From a virus (taxonomy: Duplodnaviria > Heunggongvirae > Uroviricota > Caudoviricetes): DNA of 36,388 nucleotides. The position numbers and the translations under genes were made by a program. The stretch is from the IMG/VR virus record IMGVR_UViG_2671180892_000013; one strand, given 5' to 3'. Positions 21,737-36,388 of this stretch are shown piece by piece (the first letter of the stretch is position 1; each line of letters begins with the position of its first letter). The notes beneath the pieces were generated by a model that worked only from the letters and a program-made list of their open reading frames with translations, was not told the origin of the DNA and searched no databases.

Positions 21737-23503
21737 ATGAACACCACACTGACACCCGCAGATCTCGATCCCCGTCGGCAGGCCATGCTGCTGTACTTTC
21801 AGGGATACCGCGTCGCCCGCATTGCTGAAATGCTGGGCGAGAAAGTTGCAACCGTTCACAGCTGGAAAAAACGCGACAAGTGGGGTGACTATGGGCCGCT
21901 GGATCAGATGCAGCTCACCACCGCCGCACGCTACTGCCAGCTCATTATGAAGGAGCACAAAGAAGGGAAAGATTTCAAAGAAATTGACCTGCTGGCACGC
22001 CAGTCTGAGCGCCACGCGCGGATCGGCAAGTTTAACAATGGCGGCAACGAAGCCGACTTAAACCCAAACGTTGCCAACCGCAACAAAGGCCCACGTCGTC
22101 AGCCGGAAAAGAATGTTTTCACCGATGAACAGATTGAGAAACTGGAAGAAATCTTCCATTCCTCTATGTTCAACTACCAGCGCCACTGGTGGGAAGCCGG
22201 AAAAACCAACCGCATCCGCAACCTGCTGAAGTCACGCCAGATCGGCGCGACCTTTTACTTTGCCCGTGAAGCCCTGATTGACGCCCTGCTGACCGGACGT
22301 AACCAGATTTTCCTTTCTGCCAGCAAGGCTCAGGCCCACGTCTTTAAACAGTACATCATCGACTTTGCCAAAGAAGTGGAGGTGGAGCTGAAAGGCGATC
22401 CGATGGTGCTTCCTAACGGGGCCACGCTTTACTTCCTCGGCACCAATGCCCGCACGGCCCAGAGTTACCACGGCAACCTGTATCTGGATGAATATTTCTG
22501 GATACCGAAATTCCAGGAGCTGCGCAAAGTGGCCTCCGGTATGGCTATTCACAAAAAATGGCGACAAACCTATTTTTCCACGCCATCCAGTCTGACACAC
22601 AGTGCTTATCCGTTCTGGTCCGGTGCGCTGTTCAACCGTGGGCGCAACAAAGCCGATAAGGTGGACATCGACCTGTCCCACAGCAATCTGGCCCCCGGCC
22701 TGCTGTGCGCAGACGGGCAATACCGCCAGATAGTCACCGTGGAAGATGCGGTGCGCGGCGGCTGTAACCTGTTCGACCTCGACCAGCTACGCATGGAGTA
22801 CAGCCCGGACGAATACCAGAACCTGCTGATGTGCGAGTTTGTGGACGATCTCGCGTCCGTGTTTCCGCTCAGCGAGCTGCAGGCGTGCATGGTGGACAGT
22901 TGGGAAGTCTGGACCGACTTTCATGCACTGGCGCTGCGCCCGTTTGGCTGGCGCGAAGTGTGGATCGGTTATGACCCGGCAAAAGGTACGCAAAACGGCG
23001 ACAGCGCTGGATGCGTGGTGATGGCACCGCCAGCCGTGCCGGGTGGTAAGTTCCGCATTCTTGAGCGTCACCAGTGGCGCGGGATGGACTTCCGCGCCCA
23101 AGCTGACGCCATCAAAAAACTTACCGAACAGTACAACGTGACTTATATCGGTATCGACTCAACCGGCGTTGGTCACGGGGTTTACGAGAACGTGAAAGCG
23201 TTCTTTCCTGCCGTCCGGGAGTTTGTCTACAACCCCAACGTTAAAAACGCCCTGGTACTCAAGGCCTACGACATTATCAGCCACCGCCGTCTGGAGTTTG
23301 ACGCCGGGCACACCGACATTGCGCAGTCATTCATGGCAATCCGTCGCGCAACCACCGCCAGTGGCAACCGCCCAACCTATGAAGCCAGCCGCAGCGAAGA
23401 AGCCAGCCACGCCGATCTGGCCTGGGCAACAATGCACGCACTGTTTAACGAACCACTGCAGGGCGAGTCCGCCAATACCAGTAATATTGTGGAGATTTTT
23501 TGA
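21737..23503 (+). CDS. P: terminase ATPase (large) subunit P
   Basis: 588 aa; 4-bp overlap with the portal gene. Confidence 0.9.
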   Translation: MNTTLTPADLDPRRQAMLLYFQGYRVARIAEMLGEKVATVHSWKKRDKWGDYGPLDQMQLTTAARYCQLIMKEHKEGKDFKEIDLLARQSERHARIGKFNNGGNEADLNPNVANRNKGPRRQPEKNVFTDEQIEKLEEIFHSSMFNYQRHWWEAGKTNRIRNLLKSRQIGATFYFAREALIDALLTGRNQIFLSASKAQAHVFKQYIIDFAKEVEVELKGDPMVLPNGATLYFLGTNARTAQSYHGNLYLDEYFWIPKFQELRKVASGMAIHKKWRQTYFSTPSSLTHSAYPFWSGALFNRGRNKADKVDIDLSHSNLAPGLLCADGQYRQIVTVEDAVRGGCNLFDLDQLRMEYSPDEYQNLLMCEFVDDLASVFPLSELQACMVDSWEVWTDFHALALRPFGWREVWIGYDPAKGTQNGDSAGCVVMAPPAVPGGKFRILERHQWRGMDFRAQADAIKKLTEQYNVTYIGIDSTGVGHGVYENVKAFFPAVREFVYNPNVKNALVLKAYDIISHRRLEFDAGHTDIAQSFMAIRRATTASGNRPTYEASRSEEASHADLAWATMHALFNEPLQGESANTSNIVEIF

Positions 23504-24528
23504 TGGGAAAGAGTAAGAAGAACCGCGCTGCGTCGACGAACCAGATCCAGCATAAAAGTCAAACTACAGCCGAAGCATTCAGCTTCGGTGATCCCGTTCC
23601 TGTTCTGGACCGCCGCGAACTACTGGACTATGTGGAATGCGTACAGACAGATCGCTGGTATGAGCCGCCAGTAAGCTTTGACGGACTGGCGCGCACCTTC
23701 CGCGCCGCCGTGCATCACAGTTCACCAATTGCGGTGAAATGCAACATTCTGACCAGTACCTACATCCCCCACCCGCTGCTCAGCCAGCAGGCTTTTTCAC
23801 GTTTTGTGCAGGACTATCTGGTATTTGGTAACGCCTACCTGGAGAAACGCACGAACCGCTTCGGTGAAGTTATCGCCCTTGAGCCTGCTCTGGCAAAATA
23901 CACCCGACGCGGGTTAGACCTGGATACCTACTGGTTTGTGCAATACGGTATGACAACCCAGCCGTATCAGTTCACGAAAGGCAGCATTTTTCATCTGATG
24001 GAACCGGACATTAACCAGGAGATCTACGGCCTGCCCGGCTATCTTTCTGCCATTCCGTCCGCCCTGCTCAATGAGTCCGCCACGCTGTTCCGACGCAAAT
24101 ATTACATCAACGGCAGCCATGCAGGCTTCATCATGTATATGACCGATGCCGCGCAGAATCAGGAGGATGTGAACAATCTCCGCAACGCGATGAAAAGTGC
24201 CAAAGGTCCTGGTAACTTCCGCAACCTGTTTATGTACTCGCCTAATGGCAAAAAAGACGGGCTTCAGATCATCCCGTTGTCAGAAGTCGCAGCGAAGGAT
24301 GAATTTCTGAACATCAAGAACGTGAGCCGGGACGATATGATGGCGGCGCATCGTGTACCGCCACAGATGATGGGGATTATGCCGAATAATGTTGGGGGAT
24401 TTGGGGATGTGGAGAAATCGGCTAAAGTATTTGTGCGAAATGAGTTATTGCCGTTGCAAAAACGATTAATAGAAATTAACTCGTGGGTAAATATGGAAAT
24501 TATAAAATATACCGCATACAAATTATAA
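23500..24528 (+). CDS. Q: portal protein Q
   Basis: 342 aa downstream of P; the last about 15 codons lie in AT-rich cargo-type DNA. Confidence 0.88.
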   Translation: MMGKSKKNRAASTNQIQHKSQTTAEAFSFGDPVPVLDRRELLDYVECVQTDRWYEPPVSFDGLARTFRAAVHHSSPIAVKCNILTSTYIPHPLLSQQAFSRFVQDYLVFGNAYLEKRTNRFGEVIALEPALAKYTRRGLDLDTYWFVQYGMTTQPYQFTKGSIFHLMEPDINQEIYGLPGYLSAIPSALLNESATLFRRKYYINGSHAGFIMYMTDAAQNQEDVNNLRNAMKSAKGPGNFRNLFMYSPNGKKDGLQIIPLSEVAAKDEFLNIKNVSRDDMMAAHRVPPQMMGIMPNNVGGFGDVEKSAKVFVRNELLPLQKRLIEINSWVNMEIIKYTAYKL

Positions 24529-24576: not shown

Positions 24577-25449
24577 CTACCAATTCATGCTTTCTTTTAA
24601 TTCAGTTCGCGCATTTTCAACAAGTTGTACCAACTCTTTAAGACTATCAGTTAACACTTGATGACTACCTTTATTTGTTCTATATGTTAACATATTTACA
24701 TTTAATGTTTTTTCAATAACAGGAACCATATCTCTATGAATACTTTTATCAGCCATAACCATATAATGTGGTTTAACAGCATTGTGCTTGAAAAAAGCAT
24801 CTTCCAGAAGAAGCCTTATATCGGGGTCATTAGCCCCACAACCTATAAATAGAAATGTATGCGTTAAACCCAAGGCATTAAGAATCTCGTAAAAATCTCT
24901 GTACTGTGATCTTGCCTTTGCATAATCACTTCTTGAAAAAATCAAGTTTGACGTATTATCAATTGTGCCGTGAATTTTCAGAATAACACGACCACTATCC
25001 TTTATTGCACTTGCAATATCACTATCAAAATAATTTTTGACACTTACCGTGCCTTCTGTTTCTTTACTAACATATGTTTCATATATTTTATCAAAATTAG
25101 GCGTTACAACAATCCTGCAATCTAATTTAAAAAGAAACTCATGTATATCTGCTTTAGCATAATGTGGATTCAAGAATGCATTTTTTGCAATTTCATCGAA
25201 CCTCCCTTTAGGAAGCTTTGCCTTAATTAATTCACAAGCAGTCAAATAATCTTCGTTTTTAATCAATCGTTTAATTTGTAGCGATGACCCAGAACTGAGT
25301 TCTGGTAAACATCCTTCAAGAAATTGTTTCCAACTTGGAGGCCGTGAATTACCTTTACCAACACTGTTCATTGAGACGCCTGCCCCCAGAAATAAAATAC
25401 ATTTCCGTCTCGCTAAATCGGAGACTAAGCTTTTATCCCAATTAATCAT
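24577..25449 (-). CDS. SIR2-like domain protein (predicted NAD-dependent effector), second gene of a two-gene cargo operon
   Basis: 290 aa; CILFLGAGVS glycine-rich motif near the N-terminus, TPNFD, IHGTID (HG), FLFIGCGANDPD; AT-rich; ATG overlaps the upstream ATPase stop (ATGA). Confidence 0.7.
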   Translation of the reverse strand: MINWDKSLVSDLARRKCILFLGAGVSMNSVGKGNSRPPSWKQFLEGCLPELSSGSSLQIKRLIKNEDYLTACELIKAKLPKGRFDEIAKNAFLNPHYAKADIHEFLFKLDCRIVVTPNFDKIYETYVSKETEGTVSVKNYFDSDIASAIKDSGRVILKIHGTIDNTSNLIFSRSDYAKARSQYRDFYEILNALGLTHTFLFIGCGANDPDIRLLLEDAFFKHNAVKPHYMVMADKSIHRDMVPVIEKTLNVNMLTYRTNKGSHQVLTDSLKELVQLVENARTELKESMNW

Positions 25450-26453
25450 GACTCACTCGCAGCAACATTATCAAGGATACGGGAACAAATACTTTCAAAA
25501 AGCTTCTTAGCATCGTTTACTTTTGAAAAGTGCGATCCTACTACCCCATCTTTATTTTTAAGATTAAAAATTGGAGCATTTGCTAATTGAGACAATGGAA
25601 TTAAGCTATTCATATTCTCAATTTGCCCTAAATCAAAATTCATATCTTGTTTTTTTGCGTAATTATTGATTATTTCTGCTTTCATTGCCTTAGGAATTTT
25701 AAGTGCAATTTTTTCATACGCATTAACTTTTACTTTCTCTCCCCTTACTGTTTTCCCTTTATATTGTTGCATCGCATACCCAAGAAACTTCAGTCTGCAC
25801 TGTAAAGATGAGCCATCGATGATAAAATCTTCACCTTCATTTTTAGTATAGTTTTTCAGGCCATCAGATACACCTTCCATCCAGGCCTTTAGCGAAAGGT
25901 TAATATTATTAAGAGCTAAAAGACTAAACATATCAACAGACATTGGAATAATGAAATAGTCACATGATATTATTATTGCTCTATTCAATGCACCTAATGA
26001 AGGGCCTACATCATATAAAATAAAATCATAGTCTTTATACATGGAGGACAGATGTGAAAAAACAAATGTTGTTTGTATACCTCGAGGTTTCCCTGCCACA
26101 GCGGGGTCCCAATCAGATGCTAAAAAATCCTCACTCAACGCTAACTTGGGATCCCCAGGAATCAAGTCAAAACCAAACCTATCAGTTTTTATTGGAACTA
26201 CACGAGTAGTTGCATATCCTTTTGCCCTCCGAACTGGGGTTAAGAAATTTTCAATTGTATTTCTCTTATCAGAACCATAAAGTTCATCAAGTTTTTTCTC
26301 TCCCAAACAATAAGATGTTGTGTTGCACTGAGGATCGGCGTCAATAACCAACACTTTTTTGTGCATCTCAAGACTAAGATAAGCACCAACATTACACAAC
26401 AATGTAGTTTTGCCAACGCCACCTTTATTATTGAAAAAAACTATACTGTTCAT
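25446..26453 (-). CDS. ParA/MinD-superfamily deviant Walker-A ATPase, first gene of the cargo operon
   Basis: 335 aa; NNKGGVGKTT at residues 8-17, VIDADPQ, ILYDVGPS; no ParB-like gene follows. Confidence 0.75.
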   Translation of the reverse strand: MNSIVFFNNKGGVGKTTLLCNVGAYLSLEMHKKVLVIDADPQCNTTSYCLGEKKLDELYGSDKRNTIENFLTPVRRAKGYATTRVVPIKTDRFGFDLIPGDPKLALSEDFLASDWDPAVAGKPRGIQTTFVFSHLSSMYKDYDFILYDVGPSLGALNRAIIISCDYFIIPMSVDMFSLLALNNINLSLKAWMEGVSDGLKNYTKNEGEDFIIDGSSLQCRLKFLGYAMQQYKGKTVRGEKVKVNAYEKIALKIPKAMKAEIINNYAKKQDMNFDLGQIENMNSLIPLSQLANAPIFNLKNKDGVVGSHFSKVNDAKKLFESICSRILDNVAASES

Positions 26454-26499: not shown

Positions 26500-26599
26500 A
26501 TAAGATTAATCGCAATGTCCAATCAGCTTTAACATTAATTAACACCTCTTTTAAGATTAAAATTTTGTTAAGAAATGCACTCTAGCCCCATGGCGCGCG

Positions 26600-26618
26600 C
26601 TCGTATCCCCGCCACGCC
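26600..26618 (-). other. cos-like cohesive-end motif
   Basis: Minus strand reads GGCGTGGCGGGGATACGAG; first 13 nt match the P2/186 cohesive-end sequence as I recall it. Confidence 0.4.
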
Positions 26619-26997
26619 TGCCCGCTTTATGCAGTGGTTTTCATGCACATGCATGACATGAGCAAAAGCCCGCCAGTTCTGGCGAATCTGAGCAAAGACG
26701 ATCCTCAATCGATCATGCGATTTCATGCAGCATAGTCATGCACTGTCAAGGAAGTGAAAATCCGTATCTGAATGGCCACTTGAAAAACGGATCATACGGG
26801 TTTACAAAGATGAATGTTCGCTGTGAACGGGAAGCGGAAGTTAACTTTCAGATAACATAATCCATATGCACGAGAACCTCTAAAATAGAATGGGACACCT
26901 AAGCGGGGTACTTACAACTATTCTTTCCATATTCACAGTTAACACTCTGTTTGGCGTATTTTTATTCAAATAGCAAACACCAATAAAAGGAGTTTCC

Positions 26998-27333
26998 ATG
27001 AACAATATTCCCCCTATACCACAGTTAGGAATTTATGTCTCAAAAATCGATCCCACCCTACGTATCACTGTAACCGATGTTGATATTGTTGATGGTGAGG
27101 ATGATTCTCCTGATGATGAATTGTTTTATTTAGTCCACTGGATCGAGGGGGAAGATGAAAGTGATATGACAGCAATGGGATTTGAGCTAGACCCAGTAGA
27201 GTGGCAGGCTTTCGTTGAATCTGAGCAATTAGTGTTTGAGCGTGATCCGTACATGGATTCAATCCCCGAAAATTCAAACTTGGCAAAGATTCGGGATTTT
27301 CTCATGAAGACTAAACAGAATGATCATTCGTAA
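26998..27333 (+). CDS. hypothetical small acidic protein
   Basis: 111 aa rich in Asp/Glu (DIVDGEDDSPDDELF, EGEDESDM); strong aaaggag SD 7 nt before the ATG. Confidence 0.6.
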   Translation: MNNIPPIPQLGIYVSKIDPTLRITVTDVDIVDGEDDSPDDELFYLVHWIEGEDESDMTAMGFELDPVEWQAFVESEQLVFERDPYMDSIPENSNLAKIRDFLMKTKQNDHS

Positions 27334-27487
27334 GTGTAAGCATCCATCAGGAAAATGGTTTTGTAAGTGAATCATCAACTTTTAGAGAGTCTCAGACACT
27401 CCCACTTCTGCTTCTGACACAAAGCGGACGATCACTTATCAAAATAACCGCCCACCTTACGCCTTATTTCACTCATTGCCCAAACTA

Positions 27488-27517
27488 GCCCCCATCAGAA
27501 TGAATCCTCCTGGGGGC
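27488..27517. terminator. GC-stem hairpin downstream of the DinI-like gene
   Basis: gccccca ... tgggggc inverted repeat. Confidence 0.3.
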
Positions 27518-27525
27518 AACGTTTC

Positions 27526-27759
27526 TTAATGCAGCCAGCTGTCGTCCTCCCACACCTTCTGCATAATTTTCATCACTTGTTTTCTTTCTTCATCCAGTTG
27601 CAGTCCGGTTAGTTCCACACCGTTAGAGCTACCTTTGCGAATGCGAATTACCGTTTTGGGATACAGGGGGCGCAGATTGCGGTAAAGCTCGGATTCAAGG
27701 GCGTCCAGGGTAGACTGGCTAATCTTCTGCTCTTTATCGATCATTATTTCAATGCGCAT
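27526..27759 (-). CDS. DinI-family protein
   Basis: ATG at 27757-27759 with aggtga SD; product MRIEIMIDKEQKISQSTLDALESELYRNLRPLYP...VWEDDSWLH aligns with DinI (MRIE...DAL..EL...WE...W); the track ORF extends 24 codons upstream. Confidence 0.7.
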   Translation of the reverse strand: MRIEIMIDKEQKISQSTLDALESELYRNLRPLYPKTVIRIRKGSSNGVELTGLQLDEERKQVMKIMQKVWEDDSWLH

Positions 27760-27769
27760 AAAAGTCACC

Positions 27770-27958
27770 TCAGCTGATGACATCCATTGAGCGGTTGTAT
27801 TCGTGGCTTCTGATTTTTGCCATGAGTTCATCAGTCAATTCAGAAACCCACTGCAGAGCCAGCCCCTTCTCTTCATCACTACACTCACTAGCCGCTACAA
27901 GCTTAAGAAAAAAATCAATGCGCTGGAGCTTCAAAGACTCCAAAAAATAGTCCTGCAT
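27770..27958 (-). CDS. hypothetical small protein, first gene of the SOS-regulated pair (possible Tum-like antirepressor part)
   Basis: 62 aa; aggagga SD; LexA box 43 bp upstream; 186 Tum is an SOS-induced antirepressor with a DinI-like part (recalled). Confidence 0.45.
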   Translation of the reverse strand: MQDYFLESLKLQRIDFFLKLVAASECSDEEKGLALQWVSELTDELMAKIRSHEYNRSMDVIS

Positions 27959-28110: not shown

Positions 28111-30525
28111 TTAATACAGGTTCCGCCACTTATCATCTTCCTTCAGACGTTGGTTCCGATAGAAGATACGCAGGCCTGCTCCTGACGGAATACTGCCGCC
28201 GCGAAGGAGCAAATCGACTTCTTTCTCGCTGCCATCAAATCCCCTGGACTTCAGTTCATAGACGAGCTGCTGTCGCTGATGGTCTGTAATTCGCTGTTTG
28301 TAGTCTTTACGCCGTTTCGGTTTCACCTGGCGTAACCTTGCAGCCAGTTCCCGGCGCTCTTTTTTGCTCATACTGTGCAGGTAATCGTGCAACTCCTTGT
28401 CATTCATACGGGTAATATCCGTTCTGGAGTCCCCATCAGCTGATTTGTCTTTCCCTTGTTGGTTCAAATTTTCAGCAAGGGGACAGTTATTGCCACGAGT
28501 CCAAGGGGCGCAAGCGCCCTGGTCGGCTGCCGCCTCCTGAACGTCAACGGCCTTACGAACCATTTTCCACTTCACTGCATGAGTGCAGATCTTGCCCTCT
28601 GCAATGGGTGACCAGATGCCATAAATACGAATGCCGTGATCGCCATAGGCGGTCGGCTCTTCGTTGATTTCATAAGCGGTTCTGATCAGGTGATATTTGC
28701 GGGGAACCAGTACGCCGCCCTGCTTCATGATGTAGGTGGCAAAACAACCAGCATCAGCAGCAGCCAGGATTGCATCAAGGCGCGGGTTATCCAGTACCGG
28801 CGCACCTGCTTTTTTGTCCCCCTGTTGCCTTGCCGCCTGACCAGCCAGCAATCGCAGTTCACGGTAAGCCTGACGCCCCGGAATGCCAAAGAAGCGGAAT
28901 TGCTGAACACGATGCAGAGACGCCCAGGCATTAACGTATTCAGCATTATCACGCAGGGATTTCCCCGTTTCCTTGCTGATCTCGCCAGCCAGACCACGCC
29001 CGTCAATGTTCTTACTGATGTATTTCGCGATGTAGCTTGTTGGCGTACCTTTGCGCGGGTTAATCAACTCAGACTTAAAGCGCGGCCCCGTGTTATTGCC
29101 CAGCTCCTCGCGGTCTTCACGGATAGCAAACTTACGCAACAATGCAGTAATGGCGCGGCGGTCTTTTTTGCGCATGAAACACAACAGGTGCCAGTGAACT
29201 GTGCCGTCGTGATGCGGCTCAGCCACCCGCACGCCATACCAGCGCAACCCGGCTTTGTGCATCGCCTTACGAAATGCAGCAAACATACCGACCAGATAAT
29301 CGCTGCTTTGTCTTACCGTCGCGTTTTTCCAGGTCGGGTTGGGTCTGCCGTTATTGCGCGTGGAATGGAAACGTGACGGACAGGTAATGGTGTAGAAAAC
29401 GGCGCAGTCACCGCGCATTTCCGCGATAAGCTCCAGACCTTTAACACAGGCCATCATCTCATTGCGGCGATGCGCCGGGTTGCTGCAGCTGGCGTTTACC
29501 ACATCTTCCATATCCAGCACGTCTCCGTCTTCGTTCACCAGTTCATGAGAACGGAAAAACTCCAGCGACTTACGGCGCTGCTCACGTTTATGCATCACAG
29601 CTTCATAGCTGACATAGGGAGATGCTTTTTTGCTGACCAGGCAGACAGCACGCAACTGCTCTTCCCGCCATTCGCAACGCATCTTCCACAATTTCCGATA
29701 CCACCAGTCGGCGCACAGCATACGCGCCAGCGAGCCCGGAATGAGTTCATAGGGCACTGGTTTACGGCGGTTTCTTTTCCGACGGAGTTGCTCAAACGCA
29801 GGCGGGATGACATCCAAACGTAGGGTTTCCGCTGCCACCTTTTCCCATGTCTTGCGGATTTCTTCTGGCTTAACATCATCGGTGGCGTACAAATCACCAC
29901 AAGCGGCATCAAGACACATGCTCATATGCGCAGCGACAAGGGTAGACAGGCGTTTCACCTGATCCTGACTCATTTCAGGCAGGATCAGCAGGCCGTCCAG
30001 CCCTTCATGGCTTGCCATAAAGCGAAAAGAAGTGGATAGCTGACTGTCGCGTACATGCTCCAGTCGTTCCAGACATGGCTTAATCGTCTCACGCAAATAG
30101 CGGGAATAAGCCTTTGGCCTGCCCAGGCTGCTGAAGTATTCAATACGTTGCATCAGCGGCTTGCTGATATGGGAAGGCTGGGCGTTGACGTCAGCCAGAA
30201 TGACCATGTCTGGATTAAAACGCTGCTGCTCATGCGCCAGCTTTGCCCGGCTAATGAGCTTATCCTGCTCCATTTCGCGCTGGACAGGATCACGGGATTC
30301 ATTAAAGAAATAACGCTCCCAGACCTGCTCACTCAGTGCCTCGCGGCGCAGTTGTTCCTGCTCGTTATCGGCAGCATACAGAGTGATCAGGTTTGAAAGT
30401 GCAGACTCCGGCGCAACTTCCGCCGGGTCCAGATAAGGGTTAATGGCCTTTTTCGGGCCGTTCCATGAAAATGATGCAGCGGCCTCGTTAAAGCCGCTAG
30501 AGTTGCTCATATCGTCATGACTCAT
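28111..30525 (-). CDS. A: replication initiation protein A (rolling-circle HUH endonuclease)
   Basis: 804 aa; HWH (HUH) motif and YIAKYISK tyrosine pair; large early gene downstream of dam. Confidence 0.85.
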
Positions 30526-33194: not shown

Positions 33195-33339
33195 AAGGCA
33201 ACATTCCTTATAGATATGGCTTGTGGCGAGCCGTAGTTTGTCGTGATTAGTAGTGAAGGCTCCAAAAGAACACTTCTGGTTCAACTTTAAGATCGCTTTT
33301 GGAATCTGTCAACGAATTTTGGATTTCCTTGGAGGACTC

Positions 33340-33915
33340 ATGGATTTCAGCAGCGGTGGTAAGAAAGTCATTGAACGTCTAGTTGAGGCGTACGGGTTCT
33401 CTACGAGACAAGCTCTTTGCGATCATTTGGGAGTATCCAAGAGCACCATGGCTACACGTTACATGCGAGACATCTTCCCTGCAGATTGGGTTTTGCAATG
33501 TGCTATTGAAACTGGTTATCCACTAGAATGGCTGGCATTCGGTATAGGGGACAAAAAACCCTCAAATATAAATGCACAAATTTTGGTACCAAAGAAAAAA
33601 TTAATTTCAGGAACGTTAATTGAAGATGGAGCATATATTTTTGATAAAACATTCTTACCTGAAAAAATATGTAATCCGTTCATCATTCAAGATCTGGATA
33701 ACGAATACATATGTAGCTCTGAATATAATGACATAAGCGATGGATTGTGGCTAATAGGCATAGACGAAAAAATTTCGGTCCGAACCCTGACCCGCTTACC
33801 TAATAACAGGTTATATGTTGAAGGAGGAAATCGTGGCTTTGAGTGTTCCAGAGATGAAATACAGGTTATTGGAATTGTGTGGTGCTGCATACTAAGAAGA
33901 GCAGAAAAATTTTAG
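33340..33915 (+). CDS. cI: CI-like immunity repressor
   Basis: ATG at 33340 preceded by ggagga; 191 aa, N-terminal HTH-like region (ERLVEAYGFSTRQALCDHLGVSKSTMATRY); 186 CI is about the same length. Confidence 0.7.
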   Translation: MDFSSGGKKVIERLVEAYGFSTRQALCDHLGVSKSTMATRYMRDIFPADWVLQCAIETGYPLEWLAFGIGDKKPSNINAQILVPKKKLISGTLIEDGAYIFDKTFLPEKICNPFIIQDLDNEYICSSEYNDISDGLWLIGIDEKISVRTLTRLPNNRLYVEGGNRGFECSRDEIQVIGIVWCCILRRAEKF

Positions 33916-33946: not shown

Positions 33947-35278
33947 ATGCCTATTGAATATACGTTTGATTATCGTGATGAGTTCCTTCGTAAGCCTATT
34001 GCTGAAAAATTAATAGCTCTACTGAACTCTGATATTAACTTATCTCCGCTGGTTATAGATGGCGGATGGGGCACGGGAAAAACAGAGTTTTGCAAAAAAG
34101 TTGCAAATCTAATTGAAAACAATAATCAAAAACATAAAGTAGTTTACATTGATGCTTTCGCTGAAGATCATAATGATGCCCCCATTTTGACGTTAATGGC
34201 AGGTGTTGCTGCACTTTTGCCCGAAGACAAACGAAAAGAGTTGATAAGCAAAACACTACCAGCAATACGTTTTGGTTTGAAAACCATTTTCAAAGCTGGC
34301 ACTGGATGGGTGTTAAAACAAAATGCAGATGACATTGTTGATGGCTTCGAAGATGCTATCAAAGAAGCCACTTCGAGTGCAATCGACAGTACAATTGAAA
34401 CATTATTAGACGATCATATAGAAGCACAGAAAAACATCGAGACATTGAGAAATACAATTTCGCAACTTACAGAGAAATTTAAAATAACGATTATTATAGA
34501 CGAACTGGACAGATGTAAACCTACATTCGCTCTTTCAATCATAGAAAATATTAAACACATTTTTGAAATAAAAAACTTGAATTTTGTTTTGGTTGCAAAG
34601 ACTCAACAACTCAAAGCATCAATAAGCCATCTGTATGGTTTATCCATAAATGCAGAACAGTATTTAGACAAATTCATAAAATTTACATTTGTATTGCCCG
34701 ATACATTTAAACCAGACAACTATACACCTGCATACGCATCTGTCGCTTTATGGGAAATATTAAAAAATGATTCTCAAAGACTGCAAGAAGTAAACGAAGA
34801 ATGCGGGCATATTATAAAAACGATAATACAAAGAGCTAAGTTGTCTTTACGTGAAGTAGAAACATTATCGCGCCATTTTGAAATATATCAGGTGCTATCT
34901 CAATCTGGAATTGGTCCAGAAAAAATATTTGGTTATTCATTATACCGAACGTTAGGAGTGATGCTATATTCTCTAAATCGCCCTTTGGCATTAAGCTATC
35001 TAGATAATTCTGTGGATGCAGAAAGTACTATCAAAACATTAGGCTTTGAATATTTAAGTTATGATGAGGATATTTATAGTGTAGATAATACTGAATATGC
35101 TATTTATGGGATCGTACTAGACTATATTGATGCAACATCTCCATTCTTTATAAAGGATGATGAAACCAGAAAAAAATGGACTGAACATGCTACCTATAGT
35201 TTCTTTCAAAAGGGCTTAAATACTGTTCCTCCCCGAAAACTTGTTTCGTCCGCCATTGAAGTTTTAATGCTCAACTAA
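33947..35278 (+). CDS. KAP-family P-loop NTPase; cargo gene between cI and int
   Basis: 443 aa; Walker A GGWGTGKT, Walker B IIIDELDRC; strongly AT-rich codon usage. Confidence 0.7.
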   Translation: MPIEYTFDYRDEFLRKPIAEKLIALLNSDINLSPLVIDGGWGTGKTEFCKKVANLIENNNQKHKVVYIDAFAEDHNDAPILTLMAGVAALLPEDKRKELISKTLPAIRFGLKTIFKAGTGWVLKQNADDIVDGFEDAIKEATSSAIDSTIETLLDDHIEAQKNIETLRNTISQLTEKFKITIIIDELDRCKPTFALSIIENIKHIFEIKNLNFVLVAKTQQLKASISHLYGLSINAEQYLDKFIKFTFVLPDTFKPDNYTPAYASVALWEILKNDSQRLQEVNEECGHIIKTIIQRAKLSLREVETLSRHFEIYQVLSQSGIGPEKIFGYSLYRTLGVMLYSLNRPLALSYLDNSVDAESTIKTLGFEYLSYDEDIYSVDNTEYAIYGIVLDYIDATSPFFIKDDETRKKWTEHATYSFFQKGLNTVPPRKLVSSAIEVLMLN

Positions 35279-35356
35279 AGATGTATAATTGACTGATTTC
35301 ATACATTGACACTGATTATATACAGTAAAAATGCTCTCCACTGGAGGGCATTTTTT

Positions 35357-36388
35357 ATGGCAGTACGAAAACTCACCACAGGAAAATGGCTTTGCGAATG
35401 TTACCCCGCCGGACGTAGTGGGCGTCGTGTGCGTAAACAATTCGCCACCAAAGGCGAAGCACTGGCTTTTGAGCGTCACACGATGGAAGAAACCGAAGCA
35501 AAGCCCTGGCTGGGTGAATCAGTGGATCGTCGAACACTGAAAGACGTGGTTGAGCTATGGTTCAAACTACATGGTAAATCTCTGACAGCTGGGCAGCATG
35601 TCTATGACAAATTGCTGTTGATGGTTGACGCTCTAGGCAATCCTCTTGCAACCGATCTCACCTCTAAAATGTTTGCCCACTATCGAGATAAACGCCTGAC
35701 AGGCGAGATCTACTTCAGCGAGAAATGGAAGAAAGGAGCAAGCCCGGTCACCATTAACCTGGAGCAAAGCTATCTAAGTAGTGTTTTTAGCGAACTATCC
35801 CGTCTGGGCGAATGGTCGTATCCGAACCCACTGGAGAACATGCGAAAATTCACCATCGCAGAAAAAGAGATGGCATGGCTTACCCATGAGCAGATTGTTG
35901 AATTGCTGGCTGATTGCAAACGTCAGGACCCAATTCTGGCACTGGTAGTTAAGATATGCTTAAGCACAGGCGCACGCTGGCGTGAAGCCGTAAATCTTAC
36001 CCGCTCACAGGTGACCAAATACCGAATTACCTTTGTAAGAACGAAGGGGAAGAAAAACAGAAGCATCCCTATCAGTAAAGAGCTTTACGAAGAGATCATG
36101 GCGCTTGATGGGTTCAATTTCTTCACAGACTGCTATTTTCAATTTTTATCCGTGATGGAAAAAACGTCTATCGTGCTCCCTCGCGGTCAACTGACACACG
36201 TTCTGCGCCATACGTTTGCGGCGCATTTCATGATGTCGGGTGGAAATATCCTTGCTTTGCAAAAAATCCTCGGACATCACGACATAAAAATGACCATGCG
36301 TTACGCACATCTGGCACCGGATCACCTGGAAACTGCATTACGGTTTAATCCGCTGGCAACACTACCAACATCAACAGCAACTGTTTGA
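35357..36388 (+). CDS. int: tyrosine recombinase / phage integrase
   Basis: ATG at 35357 preceded by ggaggg; C-terminal catalytic signature (HVLRHTFAAHF ... HHDIKMTMRYAHL); stop codon is the last three bases of the window. Confidence 0.88.
   Translation: MAVRKLTTGKWLCECYPAGRSGRRVRKQFATKGEALAFERHTMEETEAKPWLGESVDRRTLKDVVELWFKLHGKSLTAGQHVYDKLLLMVDALGNPLATDLTSKMFAHYRDKRLTGEIYFSEKWKKGASPVTINLEQSYLSSVFSELSRLGEWSYPNPLENMRKFTIAEKEMAWLTHEQIVELLADCKRQDPILALVVKICLSTGARWREAVNLTRSQVTKYRITFVRTKGKKNRSIPISKELYEEIMALDGFNFFTDCYFQFLSVMEKTSIVLPRGQLTHVLRHTFAAHFMMSGGNILALQKILGHHDIKMTMRYAHLAPDHLETALRFNPLATLPTSTATV

Follow-up and report, generated by a model that had tools for sequence, protein, structure and literature searches.

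A strongly acidic DUF8087 protein carried by a cassette in the cos-gene A slot of an Escherichia coli P2/186-like prophage

The stretch of DNA analysed here (IMG/VR record IMGVR_UViG_2671180892_000013, 36,388 nucleotides (nt), referred to as the window) is an E. coli prophage of the P2/186-like type, in reverse orientation. Between the cohesive-end site (cos) and replication gene A, its plus strand contains an open reading frame (ORF), running from an ATG at 26998 to a TAA at 27333, which encodes a very acidic protein of 111 residues (isoelectric point, pI, 4.05), catalogued as DUF8087, phrog_17127 or Ybl33. The acidic ORF is a real gene, kept under purifying selection as a stand-alone unit, and strong acidity is a conserved trait of the whole DUF8087 family. 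The interpretation we favour, with a probability of about 0.4, is that it is an autonomous accessory ('moron') gene, whose product would be made in the lysogen and act as a non-enzymatic acidic binder, blocking a basic target surface for the resident element.

The acidic protein and its family

The protein contains 26 Asp/Glu against 7 Lys/Arg residues, for a net charge of -19, and includes the acidic runs DGEDDSPDDE (residues 32-41) and EGEDESD (residues 50-56), in full agreement with a preliminary description, made from the sequence alone, which had reported a highly acidic 111-residue protein with runs of Asp/Glu. It ranks first in acidity among the 46 non-overlapping ORFs of the window, with -0.171 charges per residue, the runner-up being at -0.110; of the 71 six-frame ORFs of at least 100 residues in the window, one attains this value. 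The strong ribosome-binding site previously noted is equally evident: a Shine-Dalgarno sequence, AAGGAG (26987-26992, plus strand), is located 5 nt upstream of the ATG, and is kept as AAAGGA(A/G) across all the contexts in which the ORF is found. The G+C content of the ORF, 40% versus 50% for the window, indicates a foreign composition.

The ORF product matches phrog_17127, a family of unknown function, with E = 2e-70, over residues 1-111 of the 111-position profile, and the same profile is matched by all of the 43 aligned relatives. PF26332 (DUF8087) is precomputed on 61 out of 61 homologues, collected by searching 5.8 billion proteins and including the 98%-identical cluster representative P0001, and is also annotated on each relative whose locus was retrieved. 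On the basis of this precomputed annotation of its homologues, the protein is assigned to Pfam DUF8087, defined by a core of about 75 residues, as a full-length member showing no difference from the catalogued family. Direct profile scans against Pfam, NCBIfam and PADLOC gave no match, enzymatic or otherwise, thus supporting the earlier statement that no enzymatic motif is recognisable; for Pfam, the empty result is explained by the release used, which predates the PF26332 model. The protein has no catalytic or otherwise known domain: none of the PADLOC-DB 2.0 families of anti-phage defence proteins is matched at E <= 0.01, a sequence-profile search of the PDB returned no match at E <= 10, and a Pfam scan of the 43 relatives at E <= 5 produced only isolated chance matches, with no consistent family. 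An Rfam scan of the leader and flanks of the ORF did not detect anything.

An identical protein, WP_001059831.1, is named 'hypothetical protein' in RefSeq and 'Ybl33' in UniRef, and is found on at least 1000 contigs; it is carried by the P2-like prophage of BL21(DE3)/REL606 and by other E. coli B strains; the native gene, ybl33, bears the locus tag ECD_RS04420. The family is small, consisting of 34 clusters at 50% identity in a search of 1.84 billion representatives. Near relatives, 50-98% identical, are spread over Enterobacterales, while remote ones, 68-127 residues long, align to residues 1-80 only, a region which can therefore be regarded as the core domain. No mention of WP_001059831, DUF8087, phrog_17127 or ybl33 was found in the literature. 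Remote metagenomic relatives (P0072, P0074, P0075, P0079 and P0085; loci L048-L051 and L068-L071) feature a basic N-terminal extension, MGQAKxRGxxxxRIAQA, and sit amid toxin-antitoxin pairs (BrnT/BrnA, HigB/HTH, Gp49/HTH_37).

Selection was evaluated from the ratio of nonsynonymous to synonymous substitution rates (dN/dS), whose median is 0.15 over 45 pairs of family members. Fourteen residues are invariant in close homologues and three of them, P8, G11 and W69, throughout the family; at least 90% of the sequences share Y13, S15, V25, V28, V46, E63 and L78. Net charge ranges from -8 to -22 and pI does not exceed 4.53 in any of the 43 aligned relatives, down to 30% identity, and 13 alignment columns are at least 70% acidic. 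Such conserved acidity fits a protein acting through electrostatic binding.

An AlphaFold2 model, built on an alignment of 43 sequences, reached a predicted local distance difference test score of 84.4 and a predicted template modelling (TM) score of 0.70, the five models scoring 82-84. In the model, strands at residues 11-15 and 22-31 are followed by an acidic loop of lower confidence (32-42), a strand (43-50), a second acidic loop (51-60), a strand (61-64), a helix (66-76) and a further strand (78-82); a short helix (84-87) and a C-terminal helix (94-109), the latter missing in the short relatives, complete the predicted fold. Structure prediction and a search for folds of DNA mimics, similar to Ocr or ArdA, had been suggested in the preliminary description. 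The search did not reveal such a fold: when two models were compared to the PDB by Foldseek, the E-values were 0.44 and 1.0 at best, TM-scores did not exceed 0.33, and no relative was detected. The predicted viral-protein structures of BFVD did not provide any significant match either.

These results bear on the possibility that the protein is a DNA mimic of the Ocr/ArdA type, which would imitate the charge of B-form DNA and sequester type I restriction enzymes, BREX or other DNA-binding defences at phage entry. Ocr (T7 gp0.3) and ArdA are likewise small, mobile-element-borne proteins of very low pI with no catalytic motif, and the charge density of -0.17 per residue is extreme and conserved among the relatives, although a mimic would also be expected to have its surface carboxylates arranged like DNA phosphates; in addition, an Antirestrict/KlcA gene is found 4 kb from the copy of the ORF located in a Morganella island. 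The likeness extends neither to sequence nor to fold, since the Pfam models Ocr, ArdA and Antirestrict match none of the 43 members, and the solved mimics would have been included in the PDB comparison; as DNA mimics have many different folds, this only weakens the hypothesis. Distribution and position are also unfavourable. Classical anti-restriction mimics are typical of lytic phages and conjugative plasmids. A tblastn search did not find the acidic protein in 50,697 phage genomes, 186-like isolates included, and only one of 72,556 plasmid records, 45 kb in size, contains it. Moreover, the gene is placed in a lysogeny operon or in the slot of the P2 genes old and tin, places expressed in the lysogen, and not in the early lytic operon as a first-expressed entry gene. 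On balance, a DNA mimic of this type is considered unlikely.

A cassette derived from a lysogeny operon

The ORF is part of a cassette of about 550 bp (26820-27369, plus strand), made up of a leader, the relic of an upstream gene, the ORF itself and the relic of an integrase gene. Copies with the same ends and 84-88% nucleotide identity are found in Serratia (locus L003), Symbiopectobacterium (L004), Lonsdalea (L005), Proteus (L006), at locus L035 and in Morganella (L058), another E. coli island being among the sites. The contexts are otherwise unrelated, and include regions resembling integrative and conjugative elements, with DUF2857; an island with IrmA/DUF932/Antirestrict genes; and regions rich in insertion sequences. 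The unit moves independently of its surroundings, and the gene is also found in a satellite-like island. Outside P2-like prophages, the cassette adjoins a 1169-residue protein with helicase and PLD-nuclease domains (Morganella, L058, 1242-4751), whose architecture is like that of type II Mokosh, a DUF4365-TPR protein (L005, 9232-11172) and a DEAD/DEAH helicase of 1589 residues (L061, 7595-12364).

In Klebsiella, Buttiauxella and other P2-like prophages, DUF8087 is found inside a lysogeny operon having the order cI - Flk_N-like gene - DUF8087 - integrase gene (int), where all genes lie on one strand, spaced by about 10-25 nt, with the start of int overlapping the stop of DUF8087 (L039, L042, L053-57). 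The operon is headed by a helix-turn-helix cI repressor, and the next gene encodes a tail-anchored protein of 209-247 residues (PF27202, phrog_5825), C-terminally membrane-anchored and similar to the flagellar regulator Flk (NCBIfam Flk, 1e-15). A 41%-identical relative, found in Serratia P2-like prophages, is arranged in the order cI - int - DUF8087, overlapping the int stop at the extreme end of the prophage.

Remains of both neighbours are still visible in the cassette. Upstream of the ORF, 29 codons of the 3' end of the Flk_N-like gene, corresponding to its C-terminal membrane anchor, survive at 26884-26973 (plus strand) and encode NRMGHLSGVLTTILSIFTVNTLFGVFLFK, up to the stop codon; the end of this segment, LSGVLTTILSIFTVNTLFGVFLFK, is homologous to the membrane anchor, ILLAGILLGAVLFK, terminating the intact Flk_N-like protein of L039. 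Downstream, a P2-like integrase gene has left its 5' end at 27320-27370 (plus strand), which overlaps the ORF terminus and encodes MIIRKCKHPSGKWFCK followed by a stop codon, the counterpart of the start of the intact integrase, MTVRKLPSGKWLSECY; a longer integrase relic, of 71 residues, survives in L003, L005, L031 and L037. Because relics of both former neighbours flank the ORF, the cassette must have come from a cI-(Flk_N-like)-DUF8087-int operon. The cI-int lysogeny operon is thus its older home, from which the cassette later moved to the cos slot and elsewhere.

The relic frame upstream of the ORF retains an ATG, and at 26890-26973 (plus strand) would encode a hydrophobic peptide of 27 residues, MGHLSGVLTTILSIFTVNTLFGVFLFK. 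This mini-ORF is open in 8 cassette copies, is not preceded by a clear ribosome-binding site, has lost its ATG in Morganella (L058) and evolves under relaxed selection, with a dN/dS of about 0.47; it is unlikely to be a gene. At the left cassette junction (about 26826-26841 of the window) there is a hexanucleotide repeat, (GGAAGC)n. One full copy is present in the window and in 26 other loci, and 6, 9 and 7 copies are found in L031 (7790-7850), L032 and L033, respectively, which are closely related E. coli prophages. The repeat might modulate expression in this sub-lineage; phase variation in the window was rejected, the expansion being limited to L031-33.

The operon arrangement raises the possibility that the acidic protein serves the Flk_N-like protein as antitoxin, regulator or cofactor, and that the copy of the window was orphaned by deletion of that gene. 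The two genes are repeatedly found a short distance apart in P2-like prophages, among them those of Klebsiella and Buttiauxella, also with a relative of only about 41% identity, the last 29 codons of the partner are still in the cassette, and small acidic proteins are typical of type II antitoxins. The association is nevertheless a loose one. In many P2-like prophages of Klebsiella and its relatives (L074-L105, L052-L057) the Flk_N-like gene directly follows cI, and variable cargo precedes int; 26 of the 33 IMG/VR loci with this gene have other cargo before int and no DUF8087, such as BRCT-domain proteins resembling the PADLOC candidate PDC-S48 or a secreted DUF2511 protein. An obligate two-gene module was rejected on these grounds, the Flk_N-like gene being usually followed by other cargo. 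Conversely, cassette copies lacking both the Flk_N-like partner and an intact integrase, found in at least seven unrelated contexts, are still under purifying selection, with a dN/dS of 0.19 for the ORF versus about 0.47 for the adjacent 29-codon relic, and the remote relative placed after int occurs with no Flk_N-like gene at all. The adjacent toxin, obligate within the operon of a type II antitoxin, is not found in the cassette, which holds only the ORF and gene relics. A dependence on the Flk_N-like protein is accordingly judged quite improbable.

Even less probable is a role as an accessory of the integrase, either as a modulator of integration and excision or as a stabiliser of lysogeny. 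The gene is linked to int in three ways, by overlap with its start, by overlap with its stop and by the relic left behind it, and in L069 a DUF8087 relative has survived by itself at the pgsA-uvrC attachment region. However, the cassette copies far from any intact integrase are selected all the same, int is 8 kb away in the window, unrelated genes are also held in the cI-int interval, which serves as a general cargo slot, and a protein this acidic would hardly bind DNA as a directionality factor. The L069 relative, 97 residues long, looks like the remnant of a lost prophage, since the pgsA-uvrC region also flanks the P0046-bearing P2-like prophages of L052-L057.

The cos-gene A slot and the prophage around it

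According to the NC_001895 annotation, the P2 genes old and tin are located in the interval from cosR to gene A and are encoded on the other strand from A; their mapped transcript starts are at 33424-33426, about 150 nt from cosR. The acidic ORF occupies the same slot with the same polarity, reading from near cos toward gene A, opposite to the early operon. The resemblance to old/tin, which includes being non-essential and variable between related prophages, concerns the position and not the product: no sequence or domain similarity is detected, and Old, an ATPase-nuclease of 586 residues, and Tin, of 253 residues, differ from a non-enzymatic acidic protein of 111. The P2/186-like conserved cos block, aligned with the cosR end of P2, was located at 26593-26744 (no strand assigned), and is 86-90% identical to those of Fels-2, SopEPhi, RE2010 and Klebsiella P2-like phages; a 19-nt cohesive-end sequence is placed at about 26600-26618, with GGCGTGGCGGGGA at 26606-26618 on the minus strand, a single match in the window against a chance expectation of 0. 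The start of the ORF is about 380 nt away from the cohesive end and about 250 nt from the end of the block, and the ORF reads away from cos, as initially stated. The original wording 'beside cos' is correct as to proximity and loose in its detail, because a conserved backbone segment and the cassette leader intervene.

The backbone from cos to about 26830, ending in GCTGTGA(A/G)CG, is kept in sister prophages with other cargo, divergence starting beyond this point. In the same slot, and in the orientation of the ORF, these prophages carry a TIR-domain protein (L072) or a SIR2 protein with an ATPase (L073), and an HsdR-N-like protein, on the opposite strand, in L062. The P2 old-tin transcription-start segment aligns with the conserved segment upstream of the ORF. 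Opposite the P2 old-tin promoter, TTGAAT-N17-TAAAAA, the alignment places a candidate promoter, TAGTCA-N17-GAAAAT (26733-26761, plus strand), with a start predicted at about 26768; it agrees with the consensus at 8 of 12 positions and its segment is kept in L072 and L073, despite their different cargo. A second promoter-like site, TTGAAA-N17-TACAAA (26780-26808, plus strand), whose -10 hexamer does not have the final T, also lies in the conserved backbone and is kept in L031, L072 and L073.

Out of 5426 complete E. coli genomes, 1301 have the cos block, and about 132 of these have the ORF at the cos slot. The suggestion of a conserved 186-type accessory ORF, put forward in the preliminary description, can be retained for the term accessory, as the gene is found in a minority of P2/186-like prophages, with further occurrences in satellites and islands; it does not belong to the backbone, and none of the deposited phage genomes matches it. 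Its occurrence in only about 10% of the prophages with a cos block, and in non-phage islands as well, also implies that it cannot be needed for packaging, a role which was rejected. A packaging or structural helper linked to cos, or an ORF without function, decaying or hitch-hiking, might be imagined for a sequence lying beside cos, with no known function and with gene relics on its flanks. The dN/dS values of 0.15-0.19, the invariant residues and the confident predicted fold argue strongly against a decaying sequence, and both explanations are regarded as extremely improbable.

In about 30 loci of the E. coli type, mostly from IMG/VR, the ORF is fixed at 253 nt from the cos block, whereas the cargo between the portal gene and cos varies in size and content. 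In the window, this separate cargo (24577-26453, minus strand) consists of a ParA-like ATPase (AAA_31, 2e-29) followed by a SIR2_2 protein (1.6e-23), whose ORFs overlap by 4 nt and have a G+C content of 34%; in BL21, it is the retron Ec86. The full arrangement of the ParA-SIR2 pair and the ORF is found in 4 of the 5426 genomes. The possibility that the ORF is a partner of the ParA-SIR2 pair or of retron Ec86 was rejected, because it remains constant while the portal-side cargo changes independently. In a PADLOC search the SIR2 protein matches the ThsA, LmuA and Dsr models and the ATPase only, and weakly, PDC-M28B; from these matches, the pair is not recognised as a complete system.

The remaining features of the prophage are arranged around the slot as follows. 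Replication gene A (28111-30525, minus strand) matches Phage_GPA at 8e-127, and an ORF of 62 residues (27770-27958) is found downstream of it. On the opposite side of cos are the terminase (21737-23503) and portal (23500-24528) genes, both on the plus strand. The right edge of the cargo slot is marked by a DinI-like gene of the 186 Tum type (27526-27831, minus strand), the last one of the early operon. Its ORF comprises 101 residues from the first ATG, while the RefSeq annotation of identical prophages is restricted to the final 77 codons (234 nt); residues 38-100 are those matched by Pfam DinI. The resemblance to the Tum-type antirepressor of phage 186 would presumably make this an SOS-inducible prophage. 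Between the convergent acidic ORF and DinI-like gene, a G+C-rich hairpin (27488-27517), with fold energies of -15.7 and -20.4 kcal/mol and z about -2.5, is a candidate two-way terminator. The closest genome match, E. coli 2014C-3307, is 100% identical across the region.

A further ATPase, of 443 residues (33947-35278, plus strand), is encoded after a cI-like gene (33253-33915) and before the integrase gene (35306-36388), and matches the PADLOC candidate system PDC-S20 at 5e-174 and, less strongly, PifA and QatA. Since it occupies the cI-int interval, this interval can be considered a third cargo slot of the window prophage; it is the slot housing DUF8087 in other P2-like prophages.

A proposed role in conflicts between elements and hosts

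In Rousset et al. 2022 (PMC9122126), the gpA-gpQ interval is presented as a hotspot for anti-phage systems, and the supplementary table of the same paper places WP_001059831 in this hotspot, as 'hypothetical'. Both the hotspot and the sequence family (DUF8087, phrog_17127, Ybl33) are thus already known. New elements are the selection of the ORF as a stand-alone unit, the family-wide acidity, a fold with no recognised relative, and the relic-bearing cassette traced from the cI-int operon to the old/tin slot.

A possible course of events, and a mode of action consistent with it, can be outlined. The cassette would have been cut from the lysogeny operon of another P2-like phage and then inserted in the cos-gene A slot. 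From its position, the ORF is expected to be transcribed in the lysogen, either from a cos-side backbone promoter or, in the older arrangement, from the lysogeny promoter. The product would be a small cytoplasmic alpha/beta domain (residues 8-82), presenting both of the conserved acidic loops together with an ELDPxEW helix cap that contains the invariant tryptophan; these may bind a basic, probably nucleic-acid-binding, target surface and block it stoichiometrically, with no catalysis. The most probable purpose would be in conflicts between mobile elements and hosts, by excluding competitors or by neutralising a host or competitor factor for the resident prophage.

Lysogens are known to express the old/tin genes of P2, as well as the C/cI-int operons of P2 and 186. 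A blocker made in the lysogen is favoured because both homes of the gene in P2-like prophages are lysogen-expressed places, and because the cargo slots are mostly filled by conflict genes. The defence-type cargo found at the cos slot of sister prophages (TIR; SIR2 with ATPase; HsdR-N-like) provides a supporting context. Other prophage-encoded small acidic inhibitors are known, such as anti-CRISPRs that imitate DNA, and DinI, which presents RecA with an acidic helix resembling DNA. The protein described here is like them in its size and charge, in having no enzymatic domain and in moving on its own amid conflict genes; it differs in that no homology is detectable, the cassette is devoid of an adjacent aca-type regulator and the neighbouring DinI-like gene is unrelated.

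Several points weigh against this proposal. Expression in lysogens is deduced from position only: a scan with the sigma-70 consensus did not call any plus-strand promoter upstream of the ORF, and the proposed sites match 8-9 of 12 positions, so that transcription from the cos side can only be inferred, both sites being weak and neither being called. Homology points to no target, and the binder role is a best guess. No defence model of PADLOC or NCBIfam matches the protein, and its fold, having no recognised relative, yields no positive clue to its role. The surrounding defence genes suit counter-defence, regulation and hitch-hiking equally well. Acidity, finally, is an unspecific trait, shared with type II antitoxins, chaperones and a large number of small phage proteins.

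As things stand, the ORF encodes a catalogued hypothetical protein in a well-described hotspot, a modest surprise for the specialist. Its flanking relics are a clear example of cargo moving between the cI-int and cos slots, and onward to unrelated islands. As a broader and rather doubtful proposal, DUF8087 may found a new family of lysogen-expressed acidic inhibitors, used by P2-like prophages, satellites and islands, and active in BL21(DE3) and REL606, which would act in counter-defence or exclusion by charge mimicry against a protein, from the host or from a competing element, that binds nucleic acids. The identical gene being native to BL21(DE3) and REL606, the question is directly testable in standard strains. 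If the inhibitor or decoy role is true, a new fold would be added to the small set of protein-level mimics acting in conflicts between elements and hosts, and one of the more frequent genes without annotation in the cos-proximal hotspot of P2 would acquire a function.

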